This document shows positions 1-60,630 of a DNA stretch of 64,000 nucleotides, piece after piece. The notes under the pieces were generated by a model. The model made no database searches and was not told where the DNA came from. It saw nothing but the letters and a program-made list of their open reading frames with translations. The DNA lies in the NCBI GenBank assembly GCA_038851755.1, contig JAWCKR010000005.1, forward strand, positions 14,409-78,408. Reading direction: 5' to 3'. Within the stretch, counting starts at the first letter, position 1. Every line of letters begins with the position of its first letter. Source of the stretch: Candidatus Hadarchaeales archaeon (GTDB taxonomy: Archaea; Hadarchaeota; Hadarchaeia; Hadarchaeales; WYZ-LMO6). The position numbers and the translations under genes were made by a program.

Positions 1-1656
1 CTTCGCCGGGCACCTCCCCCTAAGATGGGCCTCGTACTCCTCCCCGAAGTATTTCATGGTGGTGAGGACGGGGTTCACGGCCGTGGTACCCAGGGCGCAG
101 AGGGAGGCCTCGGCCATGGTCTCGCCTATCTCCTCTATGGTCTTCAGGTCCTCCTCCTTCCCCCTCCCCTCGCACAGGTCCGTGAGGAGGCGGTTGAGCA
201 CCCTCAGCCCCTCCCTGCAGGGGATGCACTTCCCGCAGGACTCCTCCAGGAGGAAGTGGATGAAGAAGCGGGCCACGTCCACCATGCAGGTGTCCTCGTC
301 CATCACGATCATGCCCCCCGAGCCCATCATGGAGCCCAGCTTGGTGAGGGCGTCGAAGTCCACGGGGGTGTCCAGGTACTGCTCGGGGATCACCCCTCCC
401 GAGGGTCCGCCCGTCTGGACGGCCTTGAACCTCTTCCCTCCCCTTATCCCTCCCCCCACGTCGTAGATGATCTGCCTGAGGGTCATGCCCATGGGGACCT
501 CCACCAGCCCCGTGTTGTTGACCTTCCCCACCAGGCTGAAGATCTTGGTACCCGGGGACCCCTCGGTCCCTATCCTCCTGAACCAGTCCGCCCCGTTCAG
601 GACGATCAGGGGGACGTTGGCCCAGGTCTCCACGTTGTTCAGGCAGGAGGGCCTGTCGTGGATCCCCTTCACGGCGGTGTGGATGTACTTGGGCCTGGGC
701 TCCCCGACCTTCCCCTCTATGGCCGTCATGAGGGCGCTGGACTCCCCCGAGACGAAGGCCCCCGCCCCGCGGTGGACCTCCACGTCGAAGTCGAAGCCTG
801 AGCCCAGGATGTTCTCCCCCAGCAGGCCTCGCTCCCTGGCCTGCTCTATGGCCGTGGTCACGTTCTCCACGGCCAGGGGGTACTCCTCCCTCACGTAGAT
901 GTAGCCCTGGTGGGAGCCTATGGCATAGGCCCCTATGATCAGGCCCTCCAGGACGGAGTGGGGGTTGCCCTCCATGAGGGAGCGGTCCATGAAGGCTCCG
1001 GGATCGCCCTCGTCGCAGTTCACGATCACGTACTTGGGCTCACCCGGGGCGTTCCTGGTGGTCTCCCACTTCCTCCCCGTGGGGAAGCCCCCTCCACCCC
1101 TCCCCCTCAGGCCGGAGCGCTTCACCTCCTCCAGGACCTTCTCGGGGCTGAGCTCGAAGAGGGCCCTGGCCAGGGCCCTGTATCCCCCCTCCGCCACGTA
1201 GTCCTCTATCCTGGTGGGGTCGATCCTGCCGTTGAGGGAGAGGAGGAGCCTGTGCTGGTGGCGGTAGAAGGGGAGGTCGGAGGCCTTCCTGATCCTCTGC
1301 CCGGTGACGGGGTCCTGGTAGAGGAGGCGGTCCACCACCCCTTTGGAAACCACGGCGTCCACGATTTCCTTAACGTCGGAAGGCTTGACCGAGACATAAA
1401 AGGTCTCCTCGGGGTAGACCGTCACCACGGGCTCCCTCTGGCAGAACCCGTTGCAGCCCGTCTCTTTCACCTCTATTTCCCCCACCAGTCCTCTGCTCTC
1501 TATTTCCTCTTCCAGAGCCAGGAAGACCTTGTCACTTCCGGCCGCCAGACCGCAGGCAGATTTGGTGCAGATGGTGAGGAGGGGGCGGTGGGGGTCCCTG
1601 CCCCTAAGAAGCTCCTCCCTCCATCTGTCCAGGTCCGCGGGAGAGTTCAGCCTCAT
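1..1656 (-). CDS. nuoF: NuoF/HydB-family NADH-binding flavoprotein subunit (3' end runs off window)
   Basis: Hand translation: MRLNSPADL..., N-terminal thioredoxin-like 2Fe-2S region (TGCNGFC), [51 protein letters not shown]; ATGA overlap with nuoE stop; absent from ORF track because truncated. Confidence 0.93.
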
Positions 1657-2324
1657 CCTCTCACCCTAGTCCCCACCTCCGCAGGCACGGCCGGGGGTGC
1701 GGCCTTCACTCCGAACTTCTCCAGCAACCTCGCCACGGAGGCGGGCGTGAGGTTCCCGTAGTAGTCATCGTTGATCATGATCACCGGTCCTATCGCGCAG
1801 CACCCCAGGCAGTTGACGGTTTCAAGCGTGAACTGGAGGTCGGGAGTGGTCTCCCCGGGCGAGATGCCCAGAAGGTTCGTTATCCTCTCCAAAATCATCT
1901 GCGAACCCCTCACCTGGCAGGAAGTACCCATGCATACCCTGATCAGGTTCCTCCCCCTGGGGCTCAGGGTGAAAGCCTTGTAGAAGGTCACGATGCGGTA
2001 GACGTTACTCAAAGGCACATTGAGCTGTCTGCTCACCTCCAGGAGGACCTCCATCGGAAGCCAGCCCAACCCCTTCTGCAGTCTCAGCAGGATCTGGATC
2101 AGCTTGGTCCTGTCGTAGCCGAACTCCTCCAAAACCTTGTTCACTAGGTTGCCCATCCCGCCGAGCCTCATCTGTTGCTCAGGCTGTGGCTCCGGCGCCT
2201 TTTCCTTCTCCGTACCCTCCGGCAACTTGACCTTGAACCTGCAGCGAGGACAGGTGGTGTAGAAAGCCCCCTTCCCGCGGTAATCCCAGACGTACCCGCA
2301 GTGCTGACACTTTACCTTACTCAC
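1653..2324 (-). CDS. nuoE: NuoE/HydC-family 2Fe-2S subunit with N-terminal zinc-ribbon extension
   Basis: [30 protein letters not shown] motifs; N-terminal CQHC-x16-CPRC. Confidence 0.92.
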
Positions 2325-43188: not shown

Positions 43189-43501
43189 GGCGGCGGGCGC
43201 GCCGAAGGTGGACGCCTTCGCCGCGCACCGTTGACCGGCCCCTCAGGCTCCATCCCGCTTTCCGCAAGCGCCGAACGTCCTGCCCACCCTTGCTGACTTC
43301 CGCCCCTGGGGGGTTCAGCAGGCAAGGGAGGTTCTCCCCGGCCCTCCGGTCGGGGCCCCTCCGCCGCCGACCCTGCGGGGCGGGACTTCCGCGCCCGGAA
43401 CCGGGCGGTGCGAGGTTCCAGCGCCGCCCCCCGGCTTCGGCCCGGCGTGTAGCGGATTTCCGGTCACAGGGGACCGCTAGCCCCCCGCCTAGCCCGCCGC
43501 C
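43189..43501 (-). ncRNA. ffs: Archaeal 7S signal recognition particle RNA
   Basis: Paired termini GGCGGCGGGC/GCCCGCCGCC, Alu-domain CTAGGCGGGGGGCTAGCGGTCCCCTGTGACC, helix-8 CCAGG..GGAA..AGCAA, ~313 nt, 3' T-run. Confidence 0.93.
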
Positions 43502-47405: not shown

Positions 47406-48563
47406 GTGTCACCCAGACCCGCGGAGAGGATGAAAAACATACCTCCCTCCAGCACCCTCAGGGTGCTCTCCCTGGCCAAGCGGCTGGAGAGGGAGGGAAG
47501 GAAGATCCTCCACCTGGAGGTGGGGGAGCCCGACTTCGACACCCCGGATCACGTGAAGAGGGCCGCCTGGGAAGCCCTGCAGAGGGGGATGACCAAGTAC
47601 ACGCCCTCGGAGGGGCTGCCCGAACTGAGGGAGGCCGTGGCGGAGAGGGTGGGAGCGGAAGCTGGGAACGTGCTGATCACCCCAGGGGCCAAGCACGCCA
47701 TCTTCTGCGCCATGGAGGCCATCCTGGACCCCGGGGAGGAGGTAATCCTTCCCTCCCCCTGCTGGACCTACGACGGCATCGTGCTGAGCGCGGGGGGCAG
47801 GCCTGTCTTCCTGGAGACGAGGATGGAGGAGGGCTTCAGGGTGGATCCGGGGAGGCTGGAGAGGGCGCTCACCCCCAGGACCAAGCTCCTCGTCCTCAAC
47901 TCCCCCTCCAACCCCACGGGGGCCGTGCTGGACGAGGAGAACCTCAGGGCCATCCTGGAGCTGGCCAGGGAAAGAAACCTCTGGATCCTCACGGACGAGA
48001 TCTACGACCACCTGGTCTACGAGGGGAAGAGCGCCAGCCTCCTCTCCCTCGCGGGCTCCCTGGAGGGCATCGTCTACATCAACGGCTTCTCCAAGACCTA
48101 CGCCATGACGGGCTGGAGGCTGGGATACGCGGTGGCGCCCAAGGAGCTGGTGGCGGAGATGAACAAGATCCAGCAGGCCTCCACCTCCTGCGTCCCTGGC
48201 TTCGTGCAGGTGGCGGGGCTGGAGGCCCTCAGGGGACCCCAGGACTTCGTGGAGAGGATGAGGGAGGAGTTCCGGAGGAGGAGGGACTTCCTGGTGAAGG
48301 GGCTCTCCTCCCTGGGCCTGAGGTGCCTGCCACCCCAGGGGGCCTTCTACGTCTTCCCCCGCCTGCCCGAGGGGATGGGGGACTCCACCCGCTTCTGCGA
48401 GCTGCTTCTGGAGAAGGCCGGGATAGCCTCCGTCCCTGGAGCGGGTTTCGGGCCCTTCGGGGAGGGCCATGTGAGGTTCAGCTTCGCCTGCTCCATGGAG
48501 GTGCTCAGGGAGACCCTGGAGAAGCTTGGTGAGTTCCTGAGGAACCTCCGTACCCGAGGGTGA
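47406..48563 (+). CDS. PLP-dependent class I/II (aspartate) aminotransferase
   Basis: GEPDF, NSPSNPTG, DEIY, FSKTYAMTGWRLG. Confidence 0.93.
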   Translation: MSPRPAERMKNIPPSSTLRVLSLAKRLEREGRKILHLEVGEPDFDTPDHVKRAAWEALQRGMTKYTPSEGLPELREAVAERVGAEAGNVLITPGAKHAIFCAMEAILDPGEEVILPSPCWTYDGIVLSAGGRPVFLETRMEEGFRVDPGRLERALTPRTKLLVLNSPSNPTGAVLDEENLRAILELARERNLWILTDEIYDHLVYEGKSASLLSLAGSLEGIVYINGFSKTYAMTGWRLGYAVAPKELVAEMNKIQQASTSCVPGFVQVAGLEALRGPQDFVERMREEFRRRRDFLVKGLSSLGLRCLPPQGAFYVFPRLPEGMGDSTRFCELLLEKAGIASVPGAGFGPFGEGHVRFSFACSMEVLRETLEKLGEFLRNLRTRG

Positions 48564-49182
48564 GGAGCTCCCTGATCCTCCTCGCCTTGACCCTTCCTAT
48601 CCCCCTCACCTTCCTCAGCTCCCCCTCCGAGGCCCTCATCACCGCCTCCACCGTCCCGAAGTGCTGGAGGAGCCTCTCGGCCAGCACGGAGGAAACCCCC
48701 GGAAGCCCCTCCACCACGAACCTCTGCTGAAGGGAAAGGGGAAGACCCTCCCTCTTCCTCCTCAACGGGGGGAGCCTCCTCCTCTCCTCCCTCTCCCTCC
48801 TGGTGAGGAGCCAGAGGAGGGAGGCGGTCTGGGAGCAGTTCCTGGTCCTGAGCACGGGTATCCCCAGATCCATGACCAGGTGGAGCATCGCCCCCTGCAC
48901 CGCGTGGGGGTGGAGCTTCCCCAGCTCCTCCGGGGCTTCCTCACCCTCCACCACCAGCACCGGCCTCTCAAACTTTTCCCTCATCCTCCTGGCCTGGTCC
49001 ATCAGCCTGCCGTCCACGATCGACCTCACGAAGTCCCTCACGCTCTTCCTCTCCACGACCACCCTGTCGCTCACCACGAAGTCTCCCACCTCCAGCCTGC
49101 TCACCTCGGGCTCCACGCCCCTCTTCCTCAGCTCCCTCTCCAGCTCCCCTCCAAGCTCCTGCCTGTCCGCCAGTATCCTCAG
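48505..49182 (-). CDS. xpf: XPF/ERCC4 structure-specific endonuclease with HhH2
   Basis: ADRQE, GDFVV, VERKSVRDF, DGRL, LPGVS, VRGIG; start apparently CTG at 49182. Confidence 0.88.
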   Translation of the reverse strand: MRILADRQELGGELERELRKRGVEPEVSRLEVGDFVVSDRVVVERKSVRDFVRSIVDGRLMDQARRMREKFERPVLVVEGEEAPEELGKLHPHAVQGAMLHLVMDLGIPVLRTRNCSQTASLLWLLTRREREERRRLPPLRRKREGLPLSLQQRFVVEGLPGVSSVLAERLLQHFGTVEAVMRASEGELRKVRGIGRVKARRIRELLTLGYGGSSGTHQASPGSP

Positions 49183-54410: not shown

Positions 54411-54438
54411 ACACCAACCAGCAGGAACTTTCTTTAGG

Positions 54439-54530
54439 AGCCCCGGGCGGGAATTGAACCCGCGACCTCGCGCTCTTCGGTTCCTCGGGGAATACCAAGC
54501 GCGCGCTCTTACCGACTGAGCTACCGGGGC
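54439..54530 (-). tRNA. tRNA-Thr(GGU) with 18-nt intron at 37/38 (54475-54492)
   Basis: GCCCCGG/CCGGGGC acceptor, GCTC/GAGC D stem, CGCGC-TTGGTA[intron]A-GCGCG, TTCAATT T-loop; BHB-like pairing. Confidence 0.93.
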
Positions 54531-58028: not shown

Positions 58029-59171
58029 CTAGCGCCCGCCCTCGAGGTCCCTGAGCGTGAAAACGCGCAGGCCCGGGGGAACTCTCTCCACTCGGGATTG
58101 GACTCCCACGAGGTTTTTCACTCCACGCCCTGAGGCCAGGTCAGCCATCTCCTGGGTGATGATGCCGTCGAGAACGACCGTGTTTACGCCGTCCACCTGC
58201 GCCAGCCTATCCTTCAGATCCCTCACAGGAATCTCCTCGATCTTCTCCAGTGACTGGTTCAGCAGCTGGGCCTTCAGCGATCCTGCCATGCCCTCCAGCA
58301 GCTCCTTCAGCTTGGAGACCTCCGTTCTCCTCTCCTCCGGAGCCCTCTCGGCCTTCCTCTGTCCCCTGAGTTCCTCCACCGGCACCTTGTTCCTGAGGGC
58401 CTTGAGCACTTCCTTCCTGGTCAGCTCCTCCACGCTCTTCCCGTTGGGGGGTCTGGCCACGAAGTCTATCTTCACCAGCTGCATGAGCTCCTTCAGGATG
58501 AGGTCTCCCCCCCTGTCGCTGTCCAGGAAGGCGGTGACGGTCTTGTTCTTGCACAGGTCCACGATCTGCTTGGGCACGCTCGTCCCCTCCACCGCGATGG
58601 CGTTGCGGATGCCCGCCCTGAGGAGGTTCAGGACGTCGGCCCTGCCCTCCACCAGGATTACCGCATCCGACTCCATCACCCCCGGACCGGCGGGCAGACC
58701 CTGGTACTCCACGATCTCCTCCACCCTCATGTTCTCCTTGACCTGCTCCGAAAGCTCCTGACTCTCCGGGCTCTCCAGCTCCAGCCTCGAGAGGATCTCC
58801 TTGGCGCGGTCCACGATGTACTTGCGCTTGGCCTCCCTTACGTCCTCGATCCTCTCCGTCTTGATCCTGGCCTCGCAGGGACCTACCCTGTCCACCGTCT
58901 CCAGCGCGGCCGCTATGATGGCGGTCTCCACCTTGTCCAGGCTGGAGGGTATGAGGACGGTGCCGGTGGACTTCCCCTGGTTGGTGCTCAGCTCCACCTT
59001 GATCCTCCCTATCCTTCCGGACTTCAGCAGCTCCCTGAGGTCGAGGTCCTCTCCCAGCAGGCCTTCCACCTGCCCGAAGATGGCCCCCACCACATCGGGG
59101 CGTTCCACCACCCCGTTGGCCTCTATCCTGGCGTGGATGAGATACTTCACTGCCCCAAACTCTTCTTTCAT
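58029..59171 (-). CDS. dnaG: Archaeal DnaG (Toprim; exosome-associated)
   Basis: GVVERPDVVGAIFGQ, VDRVGPC, VEGRADV, DSDRGG; SD GGAGGGTGA before ATG 59171. Confidence 0.96.
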   Translation of the reverse strand: MKEEFGAVKYLIHARIEANGVVERPDVVGAIFGQVEGLLGEDLDLRELLKSGRIGRIKVELSTNQGKSTGTVLIPSSLDKVETAIIAAALETVDRVGPCEARIKTERIEDVREAKRKYIVDRAKEILSRLELESPESQELSEQVKENMRVEEIVEYQGLPAGPGVMESDAVILVEGRADVLNLLRAGIRNAIAVEGTSVPKQIVDLCKNKTVTAFLDSDRGGDLILKELMQLVKIDFVARPPNGKSVEELTRKEVLKALRNKVPVEELRGQRKAERAPEERRTEVSKLKELLEGMAGSLKAQLLNQSLEKIEEIPVRDLKDRLAQVDGVNTVVLDGIITQEMADLASGRGVKNLVGVQSRVERVPPGLRVFTLRDLEGGR

Positions 59172-59380
59172 ACTCTCACCCTCCTTTTTGGTCGCATTCT
59201 CCTTTACCAGCTCCTTAAGCGATTTTTCCTTCAATTGCTCACCAGAAGGTTGTTCTGGTTTGGAACTGCCCCTCTCGGAGCTTCCCGCTTCAAGGACAGG
59301 ATACCCGGTCCAGTGAGACCAGATCACGGGTAGCACCCGTCTCAGCAGGCCTAACCTCGGGCCGTTCCAGCCCTACCCGT
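59172..59380 (-). ncRNA. Candidate structured 5' leader of dnaG
   Basis: Multibranch stem set found by eye; TATA box at 59402-59409. Confidence 0.55.
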
Positions 59381-59433
59381 TTTTCTTCTTCCTTCCCCCC
59401 TTATATAAATACTTTGACCACCGCCTGGGGTCC

Positions 59434-60630
59434 TCAGCCCCTGTCCAGCCCGAAGAGGCTGACGCTCACCACGCTCATGGCGGGGAACCCGCCCAGGTTG
59501 TGGGTAAGCCCCAACCGAGGGTCCCTGAGCTGCCTGGGCCCTGCCTTCCCCTGCAGCTGCTTGTAGACCTCGTAGGCCATACGGAGGCCCGAGGCCCCTA
59601 TGGGGTGCCCGAAGCACTTCAGGCCCCCGTCCGGCTGACAGGGCAGCTCCCCCTCCAGGTCGAAGAACCCGGCTTCCACGTCCTCCGCCGCCTTCCCCCT
59701 GGGAGAGATCCCCAGGTCCTCGTAGGTGACCAGCTCCGTGATGGAGAAGCAGTCGTGCACCTCCAGCAGGTCGAGTTCCCTCCGGGGATCCCGCACCCCC
59801 GCCTCCTGGTAGGCCCTCCTGGCCGCCCTCATCGTGGTCTCCACGTGGGCCCCATCCCACCTGTAGAGCAGTTCCTCCCCGGAGGAGGTGGCCACCTGCA
59901 TGGCCTTCACGTAGACCGGATCCTCCCTGTACTCCCTCGCCCTCTCAGCCCTCACCACGATGGCCGCCGCCGCCCCGTCGCTCACCCCGCAGCAGTCGTA
60001 GAGGCCCAGGGGCCAGGCGATGATGGGTGCCCCCAGCACATCCTCCACCCTGATCTCCCTCCTGAGGTGGGCCTTGGGGTTCTTCGCCCCGTTCCTGTGG
60101 CTCTTCACCGAAATCCTCGCCAGCACCTCCCTTCCCCTCTCCGGGCTCAGCCCGTACCTGTCGAAGTACCTGACCGCCATCATGGCGAAGGCTCCCGGAG
60201 CCGTGACGTTGGGAAAGATGAGCCTGTTCCTGGCCCCCATCCCGGACCCGAACTCGGGCAACCCCCCGTACCCTATGTCCTTGAGCTTCTCCACCCCCAG
60301 GGCCAGGGCCACCTCACATGCCCCCGAAGCCACGGCATAGCAGGCTGCCCTGAGGGCCTCCGAACCCGTGGCGCAGAAGTTCTCCACCCTGGTCACGGGG
60401 ATGAAGGGGAGCTTCAGGGAGACGGAGAGGGGCAGGGCACTCTTCCCCGTGGAGACCTCGTCGAAGCAGGTCCCCAGCCAGGCCATCTCTATGTCCTCCT
60501 TCTCCATCCCGGCGTCCGCCAGCGCCTCCTGGAAGGCCTCCACGATCAGGTCCTCGTAACCGGCGTCCCACCTCTCCCCGAACCGGGTGCAGCCCATCCC
60601 CACGATGGCCACCTTATCCCTGATCCCCAT
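59434..60630 (-). CDS. SCP2-type thiolase (acetyl-CoA acetyltransferase)
   Basis: ENFCATGS, GVEK, VHDCF, GHPIGASG, THNLGG. Confidence 0.93.
   Translation of the reverse strand: MGIRDKVAIVGMGCTRFGERWDAGYEDLIVEAFQEALADAGMEKEDIEMAWLGTCFDEVSTGKSALPLSVSLKLPFIPVTRVENFCATGSEALRAACYAVASGACEVALALGVEKLKDIGYGGLPEFGSGMGARNRLIFPNVTAPGAFAMMAVRYFDRYGLSPERGREVLARISVKSHRNGAKNPKAHLRREIRVEDVLGAPIIAWPLGLYDCCGVSDGAAAAIVVRAERAREYREDPVYVKAMQVATSSGEELLYRWDGAHVETTMRAARRAYQEAGVRDPRRELDLLEVHDCFSITELVTYEDLGISPRGKAAEDVEAGFFDLEGELPCQPDGGLKCFGHPIGASGLRMAYEVYKQLQGKAGPRQLRDPRLGLTHNLGGFPAMSVVSVSLFGLDRG

Follow-up and report, generated by a model that had tools for sequence, protein, structure and literature searches.

Organization of the dnaG locus

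The window, meaning the whole 64-kb stretch of DNA that was analyzed, comes from a 1.25-Mb assembly (G000), and the region of interest lies on its minus strand. The genomes used for comparison included the other four of the same genus (G001-G004), one of the sister genus (G005), and representatives of other families, among them G011 and G015. In the direction of transcription, a thiolase-like ORF (59434..60630 (-)) ends 24 nt before a TATA box, TTTATATA (59402..59409 (-)), which has a purine-rich, BRE-like AAAG just upstream. A purine-rich spacer (59381..59401 (-); identity to the four relatives 0.80-0.93) leads from the box to a structured stretch at 59261..59380 (-), matched by the covariance model R1 described below and interpreted here as the putative relic of a TnpB-less omegaRNA scaffold. 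Next come a hairpin, ACCAGAA-CAACC-TTCTGGT (59241..59259 (-)), which comparative alignment marks as an ancestral part of the dnaG 5' UTR; a 21-codon N-terminal extension of dnaG, recognized by protein conservation (59172..59234 (-), start codon TTG 59234-59232); and the rest of the archaeal DnaG ORF with its Toprim domain (58029..59171 (-); PF13662, 7.3e-11; PF13155; PF01751). The thiolase gene adjoins dnaG throughout the genus (five genomes) and also in G005.

The initial annotation described this region as a multibranch RNA leader of ~200 nt upstream of dnaG. The sequences that it listed were all located where it had placed them: TTTATATA at 59409-59402, TGGAAC at 59369-59364, GCTCC-GAGA-GGGGC at 59281-59268, GTTCCA at 59266-59261, ACCAGAA-CAACC-TTCTGGT at 59259-59241, and ATG at 59171. 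Between dnaG and a promoter-like TATA box there is indeed a structured element of RNA type, and it is conserved within the genus; the length assigned to the leader was not borne out, and this follows from the position of the dnaG start.

In G005 the ORF begins with a TTG that precedes the ATG by 21 codons; the encoded peptide MKEKSLKELVKSHANKKEGEN corresponds to LKEKSLKELVKENATKKEGES of the window, with changes mostly at third positions. An 80-aa query beginning at TTG 59234 was searched against 65 genomes of the order; 44 of the 57 matches, in families f1 and f2, aligned from residue 4 or earlier, and alignments in f4 and f5 began at residues 15-24. A conserved serine in the extension is encoded by TCG in the window and by AGT in an f2 genome, and the differences are mostly synonymous. 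In-frame stops stand upstream of the TTG or GTG start at a distance of 0 codons in G003 (TGA), 3 codons in G005, and 1-4 codons in several f2 genomes. A Shine-Dalgarno sequence for TTG 59234, GGTGAG (59243-59238), is overlapped by the 3' arm of the hairpin, and ATG 59171 is replaced by GTG in G003 and G004. TTG 59234 is the most likely start of dnaG, and protein conservation extends over the 21 residues that it adds; a second start at ATG 59171 is possible, since the strong internal Shine-Dalgarno sequence and its ATG are conserved too. The A-rich tract that had been invoked for DnaG binding, together with its Shine-Dalgarno sequence (59172-59234), is conserved coding sequence, and for this reason the leader is shorter than first described, its untranslated part running only from about 59380 to 59235. 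A translated and conserved in-frame extension from 59336 had been named as a finding that would speak against the leader, and half of this was borne out: an extension is indeed conserved and probably translated, but from TTG 59234. A start at GTG 59336 was rejected on the in-frame stops of the orthologs, with TGA standing directly before TTG in G003. Antisense open frames over the leader have boundaries that differ in every genome, which is typical of GC-rich DNA.

Two other places in the window are recorded here as observations in their own right. The 646 nt at 48533-49178 contained no ORF of at least 80 aa in the crude gene set and are 81-89% identical across the genus, with few gaps; they may hold a small gene or RNA. 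At 54437-54530 (-), a tRNA-Pro(TGG) was called at 94 nt by ARAGORN (Rfam, 54439-54530), suggesting an intron or an extended call.

Homology of the leader to TnpB guide-RNA scaffolds

Positions 59150-59440 (-) were searched against 41 related genomes. The four congeneric genomes matched the query at the same place with 75-86% identity, and G005 matched only its dnaG-proximal part. Matches in G011 and G015, which represent two other families, were confined to 59379-59336 of the query and fell inside the 3' end of an ORF of 385-402 aa on the same strand. This ORF was identified as TnpB because it carries the Pfam domains OrfB_IS605 and HTH_OrfB_IS605 and part of Cas12f1-like_TNB. A 134-nt block common to nine tnpB 3' ends extends from GTAGGGCTGGGACGGCCCGAA to GGGGGTAGTTCAC and ends in GTTCAC, with flanks that diverge directly after; by its position, the end of the block is taken as both the right end of the transposon and the start of the guide, and the picture is as expected. 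The RNAalifold consensus of the nine copies consists of a 5' hairpin (P1), a long stem (P2) with an inner hairpin, a 3' hairpin (P3), and a tail; it contains 42 pairs, 6 of them with double changes.

A covariance model, R1, was built solely from these nine tnpB-linked copies of related genomes; the window sequence was left out. R1 matched 59261-59380 (-) at full length (model positions 1-138) with 54.6 bits and an E-value of 3.9e-10; the runner-up in the 64-kb window scored 13.3 bits (E 0.35), and the scaffold was the sole match at E<=1 in the whole 1.25-Mb assembly. Orthologous sites scored 66.6 bits in G004, 48.3 in G003, 34.3 in G002, and 21.4 in G001. We interpret the scaffold as an omegaRNA relic because a model derived from tnpB-linked copies alone matches it from end to end. 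Judged by this homology, the multibranch leader is a TnpB guide-RNA scaffold without its tnpB gene. Only 53 nt separate it from the thiolase stop codon, and no tnpB remnant was seen between them. The leader had been presented as undescribed; instead, it is a homolog of the guide-RNA scaffolds that IS200/IS605-type tnpB genes carry at their 3' ends. An Rfam scan, which the initial annotation had recommended, left 58500-60000 without any match above noise, even with the cutoff relaxed to E<=10 (Rfam 15). Over the whole window, Rfam 15 recognized only an SRP RNA (43191-43499 (-)) and two tRNAs, and the tnpB-linked copies, the PATE-like copies, and the dnaG leaders of other families were all without an Rfam match.

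At least 120 stretches of public genomes carry the 19-nt P1 motif, and the matches listed include many records from Halobacteria, Hadesarchaea/Hadarchaeota, and Bathyarchaeota and a few from bacteria. The bacterial records among the matches listed come from Fervidobacterium, Dissulfurispiraceae, Clostridium, and Cohnella, and may reflect the spread of one TnpB lineage between domains. The TnpB of the R1 family, as seen at loci L007 (1374-2582 (-)) and L008 (1413-2567 (-)), seems to be without a CxxC...CxxC zinc ribbon: RGTSQ runs straight into DRDY, and PF07282 covers profile positions 1-30 of 60. Its RuvC motifs appear to be retained.

On the R1 model, P1 of the relic is formed by 59373-59368 with 59364-59359, the base of P2 by 59349-59345 with 59288-59284, its middle by 59341-59336 with 59300-59295, and P3 by 59281-59277 with 59272-59268; a variable inner hairpin occupies about 59324-59303, and the scaffold tail 59267-59261 (all on the minus strand). 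Thermodynamic folding alone was unremarkable and is weak evidence for structure: the folding energy of the 229-nt stretch (z = -1.41) was equaled by 17 of 200 shuffles, and that of the 146-nt stretch 59235-59380 (z = -2.16) by 5 of 200. The omegaRNA-type fold, placed on the window sequence, reached -50.1 kcal/mol as compared to a minimum of -53.6 kcal/mol.

Seven helices had been proposed from the letters of the window, and comparison supported three of them. The GCTCC/GGGGC helix is stem P3 of the omegaRNA model, in which a pair reads U.G in G000, U-A in G003, and C-G in G004; ACCAGAA/TTCTGGT is the order-wide hairpin considered below; and TGGAAC/GTTCCA sits at the place of the pseudoknot in the ISDra2 omegaRNA as described in PMC10097598. 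The other four (GGCC-N8-GGCC, TGAGAC/GTCTCA, ACGGGT/ACCCGT, and GGAC/GTCC) compete with the homology-supported P1 and P2 and fall where indels distinguish the genomes of the genus. By its pairing potential, TGGAAC/GTTCCA may form a pseudoknot (59369-59364 with 59266-59261 (-)) that would join scaffold nucleotides -109..-104 to -6..-1. In ISDra2, the bases immediately preceding the guide pair with others some 105 positions upstream; the pseudoknot of that TnpB system joins -105..-103 to -5..-3, its scaffold being 116 nt long and the guide directly after it 16 nt (PMC10097598). The helix of the relic fits the architecture of the omegaRNA family because the ISDra2 pseudoknot is similarly placed. 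No covariation was found for it, and the tnpB-linked copies allow GGAC/GUUC only.

Distribution, promoter, and apparent decay of the probable relic

The scaffold lies between the thiolase gene and dnaG in all five genomes of the genus. The dnaG locus of G005, in the sister genus, has a 134-nt spacer with no R1 match, and the regions upstream of dnaG in families f2, f3, and f4 contain the hairpin and no scaffold. Among the genomes compared, the scaffold at the dnaG locus is confined to one genus. The relic is placed exactly between the TATA region and the hairpin, which puts the hairpin in the guide position.

The hairpin itself is conserved upstream of dnaG across families f1-f4, and comparison places it as older than the relic. 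It reads about ATCATCAAATCAA-GCCAGAAT-(13 nt)-ATTCTGGC-TTTT in f2, f3, and f4 (in RNA letters, about AUCAUCAAAUCAA-GCCAGAAU-(13 nt)-AUUCUGGC-UUUU), stands about 130-143 nt ahead of the KYLIHA codons, and has an CTTTTTAGG box upstream; in other families the CA-rich AUCAUCAAAUCAA tract precedes it. No pair of its four-pair core was ever unpaired in 28 aligned sequences: three pairs (C-G, C-G, and A-U) vary in at most one of the 28, and next to them is a pair read as G-C in 22 sequences and as A-U in 5. Two independent double changes were observed, G-C to A-U in the genus of G000 and C-G to U-A in G008. The stem was found in none of three f5 genomes, three further loci were unparsable, and Rfam gave no match for the element. 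The element may be either a hairpin of the RNA or a DNA site with an inverted repeat. Only this small hairpin, beside the ribosome-binding site, combines the age and the wide distribution that would make it a candidate dnaG-specific control element; CCAGAA/UUCUGG with its CA-rich 5' flank is possibly an undescribed, order-wide control element of archaeal dnaG.

Scaffolds that lack a tnpB gene are by no means peculiar to the dnaG locus. R1 matches were obtained in 31 of 65 genomes of the order and outnumber TnpB matches (18 versus 1 in G011, 21 versus 9 in G005, 15 versus 1 in G035). Among 20 solo copies inspected in G011 and G005, 15 were fusions of a left end and a scaffold without tnpB. These mini-elements are about 230-260 nt in total and consist of TTTAAC, a left end of about 75 nt with a TATA-like box about 23 nt before GTAGGG, and the scaffold, the inner hairpin of which is replaced by other inserts. 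Gene-less copies of the scaffold thus appear common in relatives and provide a precedent for a tnpB-less relic. Similar entities have been described elsewhere: gene-less bacterial PATEs often encode omegaRNAs, for which TnpB would have to act in trans (PMC10055086), and haloarchaea carry sotRNAs at tnpB 3' ends, with a PATE-derived intergenic ncRNA in Halobacterium salinarum (PMC4615843).

TnpB was searched for across 65 genomes of the order at E<=1e-20. The cognate type was present in 24 of them and, within the genus, in G004 only, which has seven TnpB fragments; at that threshold it was not found in G000, G001, G002, or G003, and the best tblastn match in G000 had an E-value of 0.001. The G000 assembly is 93% complete and in 26 contigs, so a tnpB copy could lie unassembled. 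The 20-nt sequence in the guide position is simply the adjacent dnaG 5' UTR and, with up to 3 mismatches allowed, matched nowhere else in G000. With neither a matching TnpB nor another guide target, the relic would not be acting as a guide RNA in G000. The TAM of the elements is probably TTTAAC; a left-end profile (nhmmer) from 15 PATE-like copies found no left end in the window, its sole alignment covering the 22 nt with which the scaffold opens.

A 565-aa TnpB/Cas12f-like ORF on contig C6 of G000 (133-1830 (+) of locus L009) was considered as a partner and rejected. It belongs to a different lineage, being 26-29% identical over short stretches to the cognate TnpB, and has no ortholog in the genus and no adjacent R1 match. 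This ORF, the sole such gene in the assembly, matches PF07282 (3.6e-23), has a Cys-rich stretch in its N-terminal part, and is followed by about 400 nt of non-coding DNA.

The promoter upstream of the relic was examined across the genus: TTATA and its preceding AAG do not vary among the five genomes. The distance from TATA box to transcription start in archaea is about 26 nt, and from the box at 59402-59409 a start is predicted near 59380-59376. The dnaG mRNA would then begin at the first base of the scaffold with an omegaRNA-like fold and run on into dnaG. In the window, TTTATATA is followed after about 25 nt by GTAGGG, the geometry also of the mini-elements, and its context is a T-rich box, then AGG and a G-run. 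In G005 and f2 genomes, the region before dnaG contains a TTTTTAGG(C/T)GGGG box that resembles this context, which would favor a native TATA box over a transposon-derived one. Public runs were consulted for transcripts: of the 20 listed, all kept as contigs, four were labeled metatranscriptomic, two of which cover most of the stretch and are marked 'probably DNA' and two of which contain only 0.06 of its sampled words. The contigs of four runs bridge thiolase, leader, and dnaG as DNA would and show no start, end, or strand.

Signs of selection on the relic are mixed. When the five orthologs were fitted to the model, 95.8% of cells were paired, as compared to 85.9% in shuffles (0 of 500 reached the observed value), though the fitted alignment itself favors pairing; with slid partners the value was 35-52%, and 10 pairs changed on both sides. 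The base of P2 reads CCUGC/GCGGG in G000, CCCGU/ACGGG in G003, and CCUGU/GCAGG in G004, and by hand count about 8 of 10 substitutions in the unambiguous P1, P2 base, and P3 keep the pair. We make no claim of covariation, because there are only five related sequences and their alignment is a fitted one. Ungapped identity of the scaffold (0.83-0.89) exceeds that at four-fold sites of the flanking genes (0.53-0.85), but four-fold sites were abandoned as a neutral yardstick: the apparent constraint vanished in the fairer comparison with other spacers. Identity of the scaffold to G003, G004, G001, and G002 (0.86, 0.80, 0.77, and 0.79, respectively) is within the range of the other alignable spacers of the same 20-kb stretch (0.65-0.90; 8-10 spacers per genome, taken from a crude greedy choice of ORFs, such that some may hold unannotated small genes). 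Its gaps against the same four genomes (5, 10, 45, and 10) are more numerous than those of most spacers. Indels cluster in the inner part of P2, and G001, at 21.4 bits, has lost much of P1 and the tail. The relic appears to be eroding, with a hint, not more, that its main stems are being kept.

Origin and possible roles of the leader

The explanation that we prefer, at a probability of about 0.72, is that of a TnpB-less omegaRNA relic, tolerated and slowly decaying, that is transcribed as the 5' leader of dnaG. The order of events would be as follows: a tnpB-only (IS1341-like) member of the IS200/IS605 family, or a derivative of such an element without the gene, inserted in the ancestor of the genus between the dnaG promoter and the older 5'-UTR hairpin. 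Later, the tnpB gene and the left end would have been lost along with everything else except the ~120-nt scaffold. Transcription from the TATA box would start at the first base of the scaffold, such that the dnaG mRNA opens with a complete omegaRNA-like fold, followed by the ancestral hairpin and ribosome-binding site in the place of the guide, and then by dnaG from TTG 59234. At present the effect of the relic may be nil or, at most, a passive one on mRNA stability.

The same fold might instead have been exapted, that is, selected to act in cis at the 5' end of the dnaG mRNA, where it would protect against 5'-end-dependent decay, tune access to the hairpin at the ribosome-binding site, or, in cells with TnpB, offer that protein a handle. 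The pair-preserving changes in the P2 base and P3 of G000, G003, and G004 speak for such selection, as does the 95.8% pairing that none of the 500 shuffles reached, and four of the five genomes retain 34-67 bits although four of the five are without TnpB. The spacing of promoter and scaffold, like that of gene-less elements, could be a selected arrangement and not an accident, and the best-preserved relic (66.6 bits) is that of G004, the sole genome of the genus with TnpB copies. Against these points stand a primary sequence no more conserved than other spacers and richer in indels, the loss of P1 and the tail in G001, and a pairing count that depends on a model-fitted alignment of five related sequences; on balance we consider exaptation unlikely. 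A live gene for a trans-acting guide RNA, a stand-alone omegaRNA used by a TnpB encoded elsewhere and possibly unassembled, would account for a TATA box placed for a start at the first base of the scaffold, the layout also of 15 of the 20 gene-less copies in G011 and G005, and bacterial PATEs often encode omegaRNAs that TnpB would use in trans (PMC10055086). It is nonetheless very improbable: G000, G001, G002, and G003 yielded no cognate TnpB, the only TnpB-like ORF of G000 (565 aa) is of another lineage and has no R1 match beside it, no further guide target was found in G000, and an element in which the left-end profile detects no left end cannot move.

DnaG prefers A-rich RNA. The initial annotation proposed autoregulation; in a DnaG/exosome leader of this kind, DnaG would bind the A-rich tract or the multibranch fold of the dnaG mRNA. 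Conservation of the hairpin near the Shine-Dalgarno sequence across f1-f4 does make some dnaG-specific cis-element plausible. The A-rich tract, however, is coding, the multibranch part is seemingly a genus-specific transposon relic that nothing ties to DnaG or the exosome, and the hairpin stem is conserved mainly in sequence, with 2 double changes, which a DNA operator or promoter-proximal element explains equally well; autoregulation by DnaG found no support and is scarcely to be expected. Translation of a longer DnaG N-terminus from GTG 59336 (a 435-aa ORF) can be set aside almost entirely: the frame is open in G000 from 59336, but it is interrupted by stops in G003, G005, and several f2 genomes, the indels of the scaffold are not multiples of three, and the stretch matches an RNA model.

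The decaying relic bears its closest resemblance to the TnpB omegaRNA (reRNA; 'sotRNA' in haloarchaea), which it resembles in sequence and structure over the whole scaffold, of ~120 nt in both, and in having flanking DNA directly in the guide position; it differs in that tnpB neither overlaps nor adjoins it and a cognate TnpB was not found in G000, in its shortened P3 and replaced inner P2 hairpin, and in its location within the leader of a housekeeping gene. With PATE/MITE-like derivatives of IS200/IS605 it shares a TATA box about 23-27 nt before the scaffold and the want of tnpB, but it has no detectable left end (TTTAAC motif and hairpin), is single-copy in the genome, and is fixed at one orthologous site throughout the genus. 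The TldR proteins are domesticated, nuclease-dead TnpB repressors that work with guide RNAs, and here too a TnpB-type guide RNA lies near a host promoter; unlike those systems, the locus has no adjacent TnpB-like gene and no second guide target. The rne and pnp genes of bacteria have autoregulatory 5' leaders, to which the initial annotation compared the region. In both cases an extended, folded 5' leader precedes a gene that serves RNA or DNA metabolism, but this one appears to originate from a transposon relic, and its structured part is not conserved beyond one genus.

The orphan omegaRNA relic before dnaG is a known kind of relic and not an undescribed regulatory leader. The multibranch fold in front of a core gene of replication and RNA decay would be the fossil of a transposon guide RNA and not a new riboregulator, and it represents a TnpB omegaRNA family outside Rfam 15 that is abundant in relatives as gene-less mini-elements of promoter plus scaffold. 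An insertion at the start of the mRNA of an essential gene would have become fixed throughout the genus, and the small order-wide hairpin upstream of dnaG is a candidate for a real cis-element. Should the scaffold prove to be selected, a guide-RNA fold would plainly have found a second use as an mRNA leader. Going further, we think it quite improbable that the scaffold was taken over as a working 5' domain that makes the dnaG mRNA a natural ligand of TnpB, with the hairpin of the ribosome-binding site in the guide position. If so, a cognate TnpB, as in G004, would bind or process the leader and couple transposon activity to DnaG synthesis, and in TnpB-free cells the fold would be kept by stabilizing the mRNA.
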